A stretch of DNA of 62,830 nt, filler included, from Stramenopiles sp. TOSAG23-2 (lineage: Eukaryota), in assembly GCA_900128395.1 (NCBI GenBank). It is 34 parts of 34 records of this genome, joined end to end, with 100 filler letters (N's around TTAATTAATTAA, not from the genome) between each part and the next. Parts side by side here need not be neighbours in the genome. Positions count along the whole stretch, not along the records: positions 55,555 to 57,298 come from LT652413.1; 33 more parts are not named here. One strand, written 5' to 3'. A program made the translations under genes and the position numbers. Each line of letters begins with the position of its first letter. The first letter of the stretch is position 1. The notes below the pieces were generated by a model that did no database searches, was not told where the DNA came from, and saw only the letters and a list, made by a program, of their open reading frames with translations. Positions 18,841-60,986 of the stretch are shown here, piece after piece.

Positions 18841-20014
18841 TTAGATTAAGAAAAAATATATTTTTATACTGTGCAGACTTGCAACTGGTTTTACGAAAAA
18901 GTAAAAGTTGTTTACAGCTGTGCTCACAATTAATTTAATTAGATATATATTAGCATCGTTTTCCAGTGTGTTCACAATTTTTAATGGCCGGAGTTCTTCA
19001 CCTTTATTTAGGGCGTTCGTTATCATATCTGTTATCTTGGAATAATCAACACTAGTACCTCGTTCGTCGACATCTACGATTTGTTTAAAATCCAATAATC
19101 GTATATCCATATTATTTAGCCATCCAAAAACTAGCAAAATCATGATTGTAGTCACCCTTGCGACTGGCGCAAAGGTTTCATGGTACTCATCTTTTCTTTG
19201 ATCATACCCCAAAGCTACTAACCTTGCTTTGAATTTTACCACTTCTCCATTTTCATCACTTTTGATATCATAAACCATTCTCGTTGGATGTTGGCGTAAC
19301 CATCTTATTTGACTGAGTAAGTTCACATCTCCTTTCTCATTAATAATAACATCTTTTGCTTCTCCAACGTCTGCTATCTGTGTTGTCTTGATAGAGCCAG
19401 ATTGGGTTTGAAGAATAAATTCTTCTTCTCTGATATTCGTTGCATTGTCTTTATTTGTTTTGATGTGACCTCCACTTCCACTATCCATTATCCACACATC
19501 TTTGTCATTTTGACTAACCTGATACGTTTCAACCATAAATAAACAAGCGCATCTTGAACATTTTTTTTCATCAATACAATGGCAACAAATATAATATTCA
19601 TCTGTTGAAAATAATTCTTTCAATAAATTCTTCATCCTCTTTTCTTACTTCATCCTCTCTTTCTCTTTCTCTTTTTAAACGGTTATTTCTTTTTGATTCT
19701 CTTTGTGCTTTACTGATATACTCCTTTTGGTTGTGGTAAAACTTCCTCAAATTTTTATACTGAAAACTAAAAAACAATGAGATAGCAAAATATCTTACCT
19801 CTCTTTTTTCCTTGATTTGATTTGTAAAATTAATTAGACTTGGTATATCGTTAATAACTATATCAATATATTTTTGTTGAAAAAAAGTGAAAGGAGTACT
19901 ATTTTTTGCAATGAATCTCCATACCTGTGATTTTTCCACCGATGTCATATATCTTTTGTTTAAAGTGATATCAGTTGATTCAAGGATATTATAATTGCAT
20001 AATATTGTATTCAT
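18841..20014 (-). mobile_element. Internally deleted Ty1/copia retrotransposon relic (gag?-protease-RT fragments)
   Basis: Protease WIMDSGSGGHI. RVT_2 motifs VYDIK...KFKARLVALGYDQ...YHETFAPVA...LDFK. No integrase, YVDD or RNase H. Confidence 0.88.
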
Positions 20015-55064: not shown

Positions 55065-55913
55065 CGTTTCAAATTAATTGTATCTACACGCAAATGTTCT
55101 TTCAAATAATGTATGATATGATTTATTCCAATTGTGTACAAGATAGATATATATATATTATACATTGAAGCTCATACATTCTTACATTGGTGACATTTGC
55201 GTACATCAATTCATTCCATTTTAATATACACTAATACATGTGTAATGGTAGTAGTGCCAAAAATGTGTGCAAGTTGCAAGTTTGGATTGGATTGTATGTA
55301 GATAGGACGAGTTTGTACTGGAAGACATTTACACTAGGAAAGTCCAACGGGAAAAAATCCAACATTCCTCTCATTATATACCTGTGCCGAATGCAGTGCT
55401 ACCATCTAAACCGTGGCAAAAATGACAAACCGTGCAAAACTGTACACTTAACACNNNNNNNNNNNNNNNNNNNNNNNNNNNNNNNNNNNNNNNNNNNNTT
55501 AATTAATTAANNNNNNNNNNNNNNNNNNNNNNNNNNNNNNNNNNNNNNNNNNNNTAAAATTAACTGAACTCGGAACTCAAAACTCAAAACTCAACAGCTC
55601 AAGACGTGTTTTTAGCACGCGTACAAGTGCGGTGGTAAATCAAAAAATTAATATTATATTTCATTTTACTCATCTTTTCTTCTCTGCATATACATACAGT
55701 ATGTATTTTTCCAAAATCAAAAACTATGATATATTATATATCACATACTTTTATGTGACCAAAATGATTTTTTATCATATATTTAATGATACGTCGTGTC
55801 GATGTGTGGGATAAATTTGTATATAATTAACTATATGCTGTACTAATCCAAGTTCTAATAATGAGTTCTCAACAACATGCATCATATCATAATTCATAAA
55901 AATGAATAAAAAT

Positions 55914-57298
55914 TCAAAATAATATTTTATTCATCTCTTCTTCTGCATATTGTATTGGTGTAATAATTGTATTCCAATCAATACCAAAATGATGAAAATT
56001 ATTACGTGCTAAATTTGTATTGACTAATCCAGGTTCTAATAAATTCAACATAACACCTTTTTGTTCCATACTTGTTTTCATTTTCAATGCCCATTGATGC
56101 AAATTAGCCATCGCATATATATAACCTGTTTCCCCATCACTTGCTCCTTTACCTTCTTTCATTTCAATCTCTTCTTTAAAATTTGGTTTACCTGCTTGTG
56201 ATCCAATCAATATAATATGTGGTGGTCGTTTAGACGTCGTTTCATCACCTTTTTGTGATAATAATGGTTGATAATTATCTGGTAGCATTAATGGTATTAA
56301 TGCTTCACATACATGTTTCTTTGTATTAAAATTTGCATTTTCTAAATATTCATTTGGATTTTCATTCTTTGGTACATCTTTATCCCATAAGAAATTTCCA
56401 GCACTGTTGACTAATATACTAATTGTACCACGCTTTTTACCAAATGTTGAACGTATATAATCACGTAACATGTAACATTCTGCTTTTTCCATACAATCAC
56501 ATTGAAATGTATAAATGCTATTATTATTATTATTATTATTACTATTATTATCGGTAGATGATGCCATTAATTTTCTTTTTGCATCATTTAATCGTTCGAC
56601 ATTTCTACCAACTAAAAGAATTGTGTATGATGCTACAACATCATTGTTTTTATTATAAAAAAACGATGCAAATCCATAACCTATACCATTTGATCCACCA
56701 ACAATTACAACTAATTTGGAATTTGAAAGTATAGACGGTTCTTTTGTATGTTTCTTTTTCTTTTTTTTCTTCTTCTTGTTTTTCTTTTCTATATCTTCTA
56801 TCATGACATGATTGCTACTACTGCTACTATGAACACCATCATCATCACTAATAAACTCATTTTTAATTTTCAAATCTTTTCGACTTGGTATTCCATTTTT
56901 AAATGTTGTAATCCAATTATCAGAATTATAACGTGATAATAAAATGTCATAACAATGATTCACTGTTAAAATATGTGTACCACTATTGATGGTACAATAC
57001 TGCTGCAATGGAAATCGTGCAGTTTCTATCTTTTGTTCCAATGCTTTTTCATATGTAATATTTTTATAACGATTTCTATCGACTATACCACCTAAAATAT
57101 AAATTTTATCATTATCAATAGTTTCTAATATATTTGGTGAATCTGCACTTAAATATATTAATTTCTTTTTATCAAATAATTCTTCATAACCTTTACATTC
57201 ATGATCAACGTTACACCCTAGCCAATTAGTTGGAAATCCGGATATTTTCTTCAAACATTCTTCTGTTTTCCCATTCAACTTAGATAGAAACATATTGA
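55914..57298 (-). CDS. TRMT10: TRMT10 (tRNA m1R9 SPOUT methyltransferase) fused to a C-terminal atypical SDR; 5'-truncated
   Basis: TRMT10: LIYLSADS, IYILGGIVDRNRYK, TARFPL, ILTVNH, W...IPSRK. SDR: VVIVGGSNGIG, LVGRN, ILVNSAG, ILIGS, EPGLVNT. One uninterrupted frame. Confidence 0.88.
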
Positions 57299-57462
57299 NN
57301 NNNNNNNNNNNNNNNNNNNNNNNNNNNNNNNNNNNNNNNNNNTTAATTAATTAANNNNNNNNNNNNNNNNNNNNNNNNNNNNNNNNNNNNNNNNNNNNTT
57401 TCGTCGTTATCTTTCGTGTTACTTGATCCATGGTGATGATGGATGGATGGATGAAATTATTA

Positions 57463-57517
57463 TCTGTTGTCTGTTGTCTGTTGTCTGTTGTCTGTTGTCT
57501 GTTGTCTGTTGTCTGTT
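57463..57517. repeat. (TGTTGTC)n heptamer microsatellite
   Basis: About 7 tandem copies. Confidence 0.95.
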
Positions 57518-58378
57518 CTTATATATGTGGCTATTATAGATTGTATCTATCTCTAGATCTATCTTATACATCTTATTACATCAATTATATAAATAAATAT
57601 AAATATAATATGCAAATATAACTGCCAAATTTTATCCCACTTCCTTCCCCCTTCGAAACGTTTTCGATTTGTCATGGGGAGCTACCACTGGTGGTAGCCC
57701 GGCTAGTATACGAAATTTCCTTTCAAGTATAAATTATGCCGTATGCCGTGGTCACGGGAAGATCAATTTTTTGTGTTGTTATGATGTTATGAATTATCCA
57801 ATATCTACCTATATTAATGAATAAAAATTGGTATACTAAAATCTATACTTAATAGAATGAAACACACGAAGATATATTTTTAGCACACATATTAAAAAAG
57901 TTGTTTTTTTTTGGGTTCCGTTCTTTCTATTTTATATATACAGTTCAAAAATATACGAAATAATCCAAATATTTTATCATTCCAAATACTATATTAATTA
58001 TATATTAAATGGGTGTAATAATTGATATAAATATTGATACAATATATCCTATTATAAATTATAAAAACAGCAGTATGTTAAGATCTTTCTTATAAAGTTT
58101 ACCAGTTAAACACACACATTTATACACCAGATATATACATATAGACATTGTGAGTGCGTAGTGTCATTGAAAGAGAGACACATTGAATCAATTATAGAAA
58201 TTTATAATATCGAAGTTAATTGCATATTTATTTATATCTTTACATTAATTCGTAGTTTGTATTTAGTTACACTTTATTTTAACATTTATATTCAATTAGT
58301 GAATTATACACACATATATAGTTACAAAGGCATATATATTAAAATATAATAAGGATTATTCGACATTAAAAAAAAAAT

Positions 58379-60075: not shown

Positions 60076-60986
60076 TTACAAATTACTCTTCTTTAGCTGG
60101 CTTTGGCGACCTACATAATATGTTGGATCACCAAGTTTTGCAATTTTTGTAGATATATTTCCTGCTTTACTTAATTTTCCTAATGGATATGCGGCCCCTA
60201 ATGGCAAAGAACGGATGCCTTTGTCTAATGCCACGGCATCGTCACCTACTAAAATAGCCCATTGATCATTTTCAACACCATTCAAAATAATTTTTGCTGC
60301 ATCAGGTGCTGGTAAACCAATTCTTACATTATCTGGATTGTTTTGCCCTGTTTTACCTTTCCATCGATTTACTAATTGTTCTGTTGGTGGCCGTCCTTTT
60401 TGCACAGTATAGCCTTGTACAGCAGACAGACGATCTATATTTGTAGAAACAAAACCAGGCATGACACAATGAACATTTAAATGAGGTGCATTATCTTGGA
60501 AATCTTTAATCAATCCTTCGGAAAAGCCTTTCACAGCAAACTTAGCAACAGAATATGCAGTTCCAGCAGATGCATGGAATCCACATACCGATGCGGTATT
60601 TATAAGTGCACCTTTATCGCTATTAGCAAGTAAATCAATAAAGGCCCTTGTAATGTTAATTACCCCATGTAAATCAACATCCAATATAAAATCAAATAAT
60701 GCATCATCTTTCTTTTTAAAAATATTTGGAAATCCACCCAGACCTGCATTGTTAAAGACTAAATTCACATGTGTCGTATTAAACGCCTTTGACACATCTT
60801 CAGCAAAATTTTTACAAGTGTCTGGAAATCTTACATCGCATTTCGTACCAAAAAACTTGGCATTCTCATCAGAACTTACATTACTTAAAATGGCAATAGT
60901 TTCTTCTATTGATTCTTGATTCAAATCACAAAATGCTACGCTAACTCCTTTTTTTGCTAATGCAATACATAATTCTCGTCCCATAA
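60076..60986 (-). CDS. Classical short-chain dehydrogenase/reductase, 5'-truncated, PTS1-like end (KKSNL)
   Basis: MGRELC, CDV, VFNNAG, INTAS, YSVAKFAVKGFSE, VMPGFVST. Confidence 0.93.

Follow-up and report, generated by a model that had tools for sequence, protein, structure and literature searches.

Analysis of a 62,830-nucleotide stretch of DNA from Stramenopiles sp. TOSAG23-2 (GenBank assembly GCA_900128395.1; the whole stretch is called the window below) revealed a minus-strand gene in which a tRNA methyltransferase of the Trm10 family is joined, in one reading frame, to a complete short-chain dehydrogenase/reductase (SDR). The fusion is natural, covalent, old and conserved, and it is no assembly artefact. 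Judged by its sequence, the SDR half belongs to a distinct, orphan and undescribed family in which Met takes the place of the Lys of the YxxxK motif. Taken as a whole, the results are best explained by a real, ancient nuclear gene for a two-enzyme protein of about 583 amino acids with a constrained SDR module, an explanation that we consider moderately probable.

The fusion is located entirely within one contig (LT652413.1), which contains neither a spacer nor an N. The minus-strand stop-to-stop frame extends over 55914..57350 and is open from the contig end at 57298. The window copy of the protein (P0001) is translated from 57296 to 55917 and comprises 460 residues with no internal stop. The elements of the gene are given below. 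The YxxxM SDR family named there was defined in this analysis; its position numbers refer to the SDR piece, and conservation is counted over 31 members.

55555..57298: contig with the fusion, 1744 bases, artificial spacers on both sides (cores 55499-55510 and 57343-57354)
56877..57296, minus strand: last 140 residues of the Trm10 (SPOUT) methyltransferase domain, which correspond to P0002 residues 124-263; the 5' end is lost at the contig end
57078..57080, minus strand: Asp of GGIVDRNR (D196 of P0002), aligned to the Asp in the S. pombe Trm10 motif IVDKN
56742..56876, minus strand: low-complexity Ser/His/poly-Lys linker, predicted to be disordered
55917..56741, minus strand: complete SDR domain of 275 residues, YxxxM family, from PF00106 and an AlphaFold2 (AF2) model
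56676..56702, minus strand: Gly-rich dinucleotide-binding loop GGSNGIGYG (G15 in 30/31, G19 in 29/31 and G21 in 29/31 members)
56199..56201, minus strand: Ser at the catalytic Ser position (GSQAG), Ser in 31/31 members
56109..56123, minus strand: YIYAM, with the Tyr kept (31/31) and Met instead of the YxxxK Lys (31/31)
55914-55916, minus strand: stop codon TGA, read in the sequence

Both domains of P0001 were recognized by Pfam above the respective cut-off. PF01746 (tRNA_m1G_MT) matched residues 35-140 (profile positions 73-195 of 195) with 73.2 bits against a cut-off of 27.3, and PF00106 (adh_short) matched residues 194-434 with 40.5 bits against a cut-off of 26.6. This confirmed the arrangement described in the first-pass annotation of this DNA, namely, the C-terminal part of a Trm10 domain, a Ser/His/poly-Lys linker and a full SDR in one frame. 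The linker of the window copy comprises 45 residues (VHSSSSSNHVMIEDIEKKNKKKKKKKKKHTKEP). The N-terminus is indeed missing from the window copy, as had also been stated, but the cause is the contig end at 57298 and the gene is not broken: a full-length protein of 583 amino acids (P0002), 99% identical to the window copy, provides the missing residues 1-123 and reaches 97.5 bits against PF01746.

The window itself consists of about 34 short contigs joined end to end, each of approximately 1.75-1.86 kb and sorted by falling length. Spacers consisting of an N-run, TTAATTAATTAA and a second N-run separate the contigs; 33 were found, compared to 0.15 expected by chance, at a spacing of approximately 1.85 kb, and the TTAATTAATTAA spacers carry stops in all six frames, as artificial joins. 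An apparent neighbourhood or "chimera" across any spacer is therefore without meaning. The signs of chimerism that had been noted elsewhere in this assembly correspond to real joins, but these joins are the 33 artificial spacers, and the fusion lies inside one contig.

Searches for relatives revealed the same architecture in many other sequences. Among 55 homologues of the window protein, 11 (P0002-P0012, 99-29% identity) contained both Trm10 and adh_short, 43 were plain Trm10s and one was a Nudix-SDR protein (P0014). Fused relatives on independent contigs reached down to approximately 23% identity. A scan of metagenome contigs with an alignment of the SDR only yielded 13 loci (L001-L013). In 6 of these 13 (L001-L004, L008 and L009), tblastn of P0002 gave one same-frame match over residues 12-582 (1-583 in L001), and a single open frame of 570-624 codons was found in 8 of 12 loci examined. 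The window contig and L001 share 96.8% DNA identity. The GC content of the fusion-bearing loci (L001-L010 and L012) ranged from 26 to 47%, a spread that indicates the involvement of many lineages; the two loci with the highest GC content, L011 (56%) and L013 (60%), showed a match to the SDR only. The gene is without introns in most of the other lineages. In the two related loci L006 and L010, the P0002 match is split into two frames at approximately residue 195, within the Trm10 part; the change of frame takes up approximately 65 bases and suggests that this lineage has a short intron there.

The fusion was also found in sequence data of other origin. At least part of the stretch was present in 20 of 24 listed sequencing runs, from 14 studies; three of these runs perhaps represent the source sample, and the runs that contain it are marine. 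In an independent DNA metagenome (X4), one contig (record 12) spans 56558-57298 and thereby bridges the linker. A polyA RNA run (X15) contained three contigs at 99% identity or more, in the SDR part (56170-56416 and 56607-56740) and in the Trm10 part (57035-57294), which end at low-complexity repeats, and RNA run X16 contained one contig over 56819-57298. These RNA contigs neither prove transcription nor reveal a break. Among the more distant fused relatives, P0111 is a transcript from MMETSP, so that the same architecture, which the first-pass annotation had proposed to look for in EukProt and MMETSP, is present there. Another (P0112) is an NCBI/UniRef protein of the thraustochytrid labyrinthulomycete Hondaea fermentalgiana, where it is named "tRNA guanine9-N1-methyltransferase". 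The earlier suggestion of a natural fusion is borne out by these relatives on independent contigs, by the MMETSP transcript and by the Hondaea protein. The closest named stand-alone Trm10s are from oomycetes (44-48% identity), and the host of the gene is, from such matches, most likely a marine stramenopile.

A word-based search with the SDR part alone yielded four matches and was too insensitive; an exhaustive profile search with the SDR alignment was used instead, in which 1.84 billion representatives were read. At a threshold of E<=1e-30, 27 representatives were found. Beside the first set of fused proteins, to which the window protein belongs (type A), a second, more divergent set (type B) was identified, consisting of P0111, P0112, P0113, P0117, P0121 and the partial P0124. 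The Pfam cut-offs for both domains were passed by all six full-length proteins tested (five of type B and P0103). P0124 passed the cut-off for Trm10 and not that for adh_short, and it matched the SDR family profile. Hondaea P0112 resembles the window protein in having the same two domains, both of which pass Pfam, and its SDR half matches the family profile at 1.8e-38; it differs in its low identity (24-28% per domain), its longer acidic N-terminus, a long insert in the SDR and its annotation as a plain Trm10. Trees were calculated by a quick method for each half. In the Trm10-domain tree (61 rows), type A formed one group (SH-aLRT 92) and type B another (77, with a core at 97). The SDR tree (31 rows) shares subclades with the Trm10 tree, namely, (P0009,P0010), (P0011,P0103), (window/P0002,P0003,P0005) and the type-B core. 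The presence of the same subclades in both trees indicates that the two halves diverged together within those groups.

The Trm10 half was compared with characterized members of its family. P0002 scored 126.5 bits against S. pombe Trm10 (4jwh), 112.1 bits against human TRMT10A (4fmw) and 76-78 bits against TRMT10C; for P0111, the corresponding values were 94.9, 82.6 and 66-68 bits. The Trm10 part of the window copy alone matched 4jwh at 5.8e-26 and 4fmw at 3.3e-22. Superposition of the AF2 model of P0002 on 4jwf_A gave a TMt of 0.87, a root mean square deviation (rmsd) of 1.5 and 40% identity, and superposition on 4fmw_A gave a TMt of 0.91 and an rmsd of 2.2; identity to Trm10 structures ranged from 32 to 40%. 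The Asp of GGIVDRNR (D196) occurs without exception in the 17 fused proteins compared, and the equivalent Asp of the VD(K/R/H)N motif is presumably the catalytic base in Trm10. With respect to composition, the first 30 residues of type-A proteins are rich in Lys and Arg around a conserved SKNAKKRQL, and those of type-B proteins contain 5 to 10 acidic residues; judged by composition, the N-termini of both types appear unlike a mitochondrial presequence. The half thus shares family, fold, basic N-terminal region and the GGIVD(R/K)N motif with yeast and S. pombe Trm10 and human TRMT10A. In contrast to these enzymes, which are single-domain monomers ending after the SPOUT domain, a linker of approximately 45 residues and an SDR of 275 residues follow here. 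By sequence, it is predicted to be a Trm10 of the cytosolic/nuclear Trm10/TRMT10A type with everything that a self-sufficient Trm10 has, and it lies closer to that type than to the TRMT10C subfamily. This agrees with the earlier remark that its motifs are TRMT10A- and yeast-like. The mitochondrial RNase P setting in which the fusion had been placed found no such agreement: TRMT10C is the lowest-scoring of these relatives, and the N-termini, whether basic or acidic, appear by composition unlike presequences.

The SDR half was modelled separately. The SDR-only AF2 model reached a predicted local distance difference test score (pLDDT) of 91.2 and a predicted template modelling score (pTM) of 0.90. 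Among 48,161 chains, the best structure match was the sepiapterin reductase of Chlorobium tepidum (2bd0; Z 24.1, rmsd 2.5, 219 residues, 22% identity). The other solved SDRs formed a plateau at Z 21-23 over 200-226 residues, with the row following 2bd0 at 22.8, so that the margin of 2bd0 is approximately 1.3 over the next row and approximately 2 over the bulk of the plateau. The YxxxM family profile matched only generic SDRs among its best 60 of 484 matches in the Protein Data Bank (PDB), mainly via their N-terminal half. HSD17B10 was not among these best 60 of 484, nor was it among the structure matches listed for the full-length P0002 model or the SDR-only model. NCBIfam gave weak generic matches far below cut-off, and the generic adh_short was the sole Pfam/NCBIfam model that reached its cut-off; a search of the Protein Atlas with the SDR part returned generic fungal and bacterial SDR clusters only.

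Comparison of the family members revealed a signature, R..D..GxFxWD..Nxx(S/T)(K/R)..S..YxxxM..P....T..F..W, of which the window copy has every position. R46, D82, G115, F117, W119, D120, L133, S181, Y207, M211 and P237 are invariant in all 31 members. An Arg after strand 2, here R46, is the usual mark of NADP(H) preference in SDRs. The PG motif reads EPGLVNT in the window copy (P237 in 31/31, T242 in 30/31). The catalytic tetrad Asn-Ser-Tyr-Lys is incomplete: Asn (N137) is present in 30 members and Ser and Tyr in all 31, and the Lys is Met in all 31. The absence of the YxxxK Lys from the window copy, already noted on first inspection, was verified at 56109-56126 (GYIYAM), where the Tyr is kept and Met stands for Lys. 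From the alignment, the exchange of Lys for Met appears to be a fixed trait of the whole family, whose other active-site marks are kept. Position 141, one helical turn after the Asn, is Lys in 27 members and Arg in 4, and this conserved basic residue may stand in for the lost Lys. Like the classical NADP(H) SDRs (2bd0; YciK 3g1t and 3f1k), the window SDR has a Rossmann fold (TMt approximately 0.7 for YciK), and it shares with them the Gly-rich loop, a basic residue after strand 2, the Asn, Ser and Tyr and the PG motif. It differs from them in its low identity (14-24%), the Met for Lys, the invariant F-x-W-D and an extra segment of approximately 10-20 residues (KPNFKEEIEMKEGKGASDGE) between Ser and Tyr. 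The organism also has normal YxxxK SDRs: on the minus strand of another contig of the window, 60079-60984 encodes a classical SDR of the ordinary kind, which scores 112.2 bits against adh_short and whose YSVAK motif is intact.

The two domains and the linker were compared separately between relatives. Identity of P0007 to P0002 was 52% in the Trm10 domain, 48% in the SDR and 6% in the linker; for P0111, the values were 29%, 28% and 12%. Linker identity to relatives falls to 0-41%, and the linker stays in frame while its sequence changes completely between lineages. The SDR is thus about as conserved as the Trm10 domain and the linker is not, which argues against a decaying scaffold. The full-length AF2 model of P0002 shows two well-folded domains with a pTM of 0.52 and a pLDDT below 50 for residues 274-310 of the linker. 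The disordered linker and the pTM of 0.52 mean that no fixed packing of the domains is predicted.

The YxxxM family was also found outside the Trm10 fusion. In P0014 (EukProt, 443 amino acids), the SDR is preceded in the same protein by a Nudix domain, an orthologue of Arabidopsis NUDX1 (match at 5.8e-36) and human NUDT15 (1.4e-34). This is another case, independent of the first, in which the family is joined to an enzyme that handles nucleotides. P0108, from the glaucophyte Cyanophora paradoxa, is apparently a stand-alone protein with its C-terminus cut. Short stand-alone forms of 220-247 amino acids occur in bacterial metagenome-assembled genomes labelled Saccharibacteria (L016 and L023), Paceibacterota (L017), Berkelbacteria (P0110) and "Gammaproteobacteria" (L014 and L015). 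The genomes that hold L014, L016, L017 and L023 (G001-G004) are 0.5-0.9 Mb in size. Prokaryote genomes were scanned with EPG[LI]I[DN]Tx[ML]A, a pattern generic to SDRs, which gave 80 loci, of which L014-L017 and L023 were taken as family members. The family profile recognized L014, L016, L017 and L023 (7e-62 to 6e-99), and L015 is 57% identical to P0123. In the three loci of the Candidate Phyla Radiation (CPR) that were examined (L016:1067-1729, L017:5992-6735 and L023:5848-6525), the SDR gene is found downstream of fusA, the gene for elongation factor G, either immediately or after one small intervening gene, and in all three it sits in the rpsL-rpsG-fusA-tuf (str-operon) region. At E<=1e-25, the family was present in none of 400 other Patescibacteria genomes, that is, only in the search centre G002 among 401. 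Because the family is this rare in Patescibacteria, the fusA neighbourhood is an observation on three genomes and no rule. In L014:5980-6711 and L015:2383-3093, the SDR gene lies divergently beside a thioredoxin-reductase-like gene, near ruvC, yebC and rpoC. L014 also contains a split transketolase; its genome (G001) is approximately 0.9 Mb in size, and its label as Gammaproteobacteria may be doubtful.

In other contigs of the window, a fragment of a Ty1/copia-type reverse transcriptase (RVT_2, 1.6e-10) was found on the minus strand at 18844-19644, and the contig adjoining that of the fusion contains a short tandem array of the heptamers ACAGACA/CAGACAA (57470-57530, approximately 8 copies). 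An Rfam scan of the window gave no matches.

Full-text literature searches, supplementary files aside, found no paper describing a Trm10-SDR fusion, and no paper was found on Hondaea P0112. The architecture is already visible in public databases, in precomputed Pfam domains and in the Hondaea entry, which is annotated only as Trm10. As far as the available text of PMC10941002 goes, Trm10 enzymes are taken as monomeric and self-sufficient, TRMT10C is so far the sole one that needs a partner, mitochondrial Trm10 is known from metazoans only, and the SDR partner of TRMT10C is discussed under constructive neutral acquisition. The human TRMT10C-SDR5C1 (MRPP1-MRPP2) complex resembles the fusion in that a Trm10-family methyltransferase is paired with a protein of the SDR superfamily. 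The same portion of that source presents the complex as non-covalent, mitochondrial and confined to animals, with an SDR tetramer whose active site is intact (PMC10941002). In contrast, the pairing reported here is covalent and occurs in a stramenopile, its Trm10 is nearer to TRMT10A, its SDR is of another family, and Met replaces the Lys. The likeness between the two concerns the domain superfamilies only and is at most convergent.

In the explanation that we favour, the window would hold a 5'-truncated copy of an ancient nuclear gene from an AT-rich marine protist, most likely a stramenopile. Its protein would run from a basic N-terminal region through a Trm10 SPOUT domain of the cytosolic/nuclear type and a disordered, variable linker to an SDR of the YxxxM family. 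Like yeast Trm10 and TRMT10A, the Trm10 half would methylate cytosolic tRNA unaided, to m1G9 (or m1R9). NADP(H) would be bound by the SDR half, which would function as a module in its own right, either in catalysis or in sensing the cofactor, and would not be a decayed scaffold. The two halves would be flexibly tethered and not packed together.

Several points weigh against this explanation. NADP(H) binding by the SDR half is probable, on the basis of its motifs only, and classical SDR chemistry could be gone, given that none of the 31 members retains the Lys. Neither tree has a resolved backbone, so that types A and B could stem from separate fusion events as well as from one. The placement of the gene in stramenopiles by sequence comes from the oomycete Trm10 matches and the labyrinthulomycete type-B protein only. 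Reads across the linker, proposed at the outset as a check of the fusion, are provided for DNA by the X4 contig; for RNA, no contig of runs X15 and X16 crosses 56741-56818.

A possible but less probable explanation is that the SDR half is a second enzyme for tRNA or nucleotides. Acting on tRNA or on a nucleotide resembling a purine or pterin, it would perform or sense a reaction that depends on NADPH, which would make the protein bifunctional. Both fusion partners of the family handle guanine-type nucleotides, Trm10 acting on purine 9 of tRNA and the Nudix domain of P0014 being of the NUDX1/NUDT15 type (5.8e-36). All three CPR loci examined have the stand-alone gene close to fusA, the highest-ranking structure is that of a pterin enzyme, the Chlorobium sepiapterin reductase (Z 24.1), and the invariant aromatic F-x-W-D adjoins the cofactor site. 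These hints, from guanine-handling partners, fusA and a pterin reductase, are weak. We know of no SDR that acts on tRNA, the Z margin over other SDRs is small, the fusA linkage concerns three genomes of a family that is rare in CPR bacteria (0 of 400 others), and gene fusions can reflect co-regulation only. Plant NUDX1 is reportedly active on dihydroneopterin triphosphate; together with the Z margin, this makes the idea of a pterin reductase a lead only. A bolder proposal, which we regard as rather doubtful, is that stramenopiles recruited an SDR to Trm10 independently of animals, that this SDR either holds the tRNA or performs an NADPH-dependent step at or near the methylated purine, and that the YxxxM family is a new class of translation-linked SDRs.

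It is unlikely that the SDR is without catalysis and serves as an in-cis platform that Trm10 needs for tRNA binding or methylation, as a convergent, covalent counterpart of TRMT10C-SDR5C1. In favour of this, the fusion unites the two superfamilies of the animal complex, the YxxxK Lys is Met throughout the family, and the fusion has been kept across deep divergence. Since TRMT10C is so far the sole Trm10 that needs a partner, at least in the available part of PMC10941002, a second case would be meaningful. However, the SDR family also exists without Trm10, in the Nudix fusion, in Cyanophora and in CPR bacteria, and the fused Trm10 halves retain the full basic N-terminal region and the methyltransferase domain of self-sufficient Trm10s. 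The disordered linker and the pTM of 0.52 predict no fixed packing, and HSD17B10 is absent from the matches listed. The first-pass annotation had put forward such a non-catalytic scaffold, joined to Trm10 either convergently or from an older partnership. The results support neither the non-catalytic scaffold nor an older partnership with SDR5C1: only the Lys is replaced, with the Ser, Tyr, Gly-rich loop, Arg and PG motif invariant or nearly so in 31 members, the SDR shows about the same degree of conservation as the Trm10 domain and also occurs apart from it, and it belongs, by sequence, to an orphan family with HSD17B10 not among the matches listed. A weaker version of the proposal, in which a Trm10 was joined independently, for a second time, to an SDR that assists it, would be possible; however, SDR domains are very common fusion partners, which makes coincidence a serious alternative.

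A merger of two neighbouring genes by mis-assembly or read-through gene prediction is highly improbable and effectively already refuted: the contig is short, the assembly is fragmented, the low-complexity linker is a possible place for a misjoin and no RNA contig crosses it, but the raw DNA contains one uninterrupted frame, the same architecture is found in 8 of 12 loci examined as well as in L002, in an MMETSP transcript and in the Hondaea annotation, an independent metagenome contig bridges the linker, and the linker stays in frame despite full sequence change.

What is new is the Trm10-SDR fusion itself, an undescribed form of an enzyme already known, to which an SDR of an orphan family is attached. 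That family, with its invariant exchange of Lys for Met, is now defined and extends over protists, a glaucophyte and CPR bacteria with tiny genomes. If independent recruitment is true, the Trm10-SDR partnership would be recurrent and not a one-off accident of animal mitochondria. As a second pairing of Trm10 and an SDR, covalent and long conserved, in an unrelated eukaryotic lineage, the fusion is a natural test case. Since thraustochytrids are culturable, the question can be approached at the bench. Should the SDR half prove important for tRNA methylation, the pairing would be no accident; otherwise, the animal case would stay unique, and the fusion would point to another link between tRNA methylation and NADP(H) chemistry.

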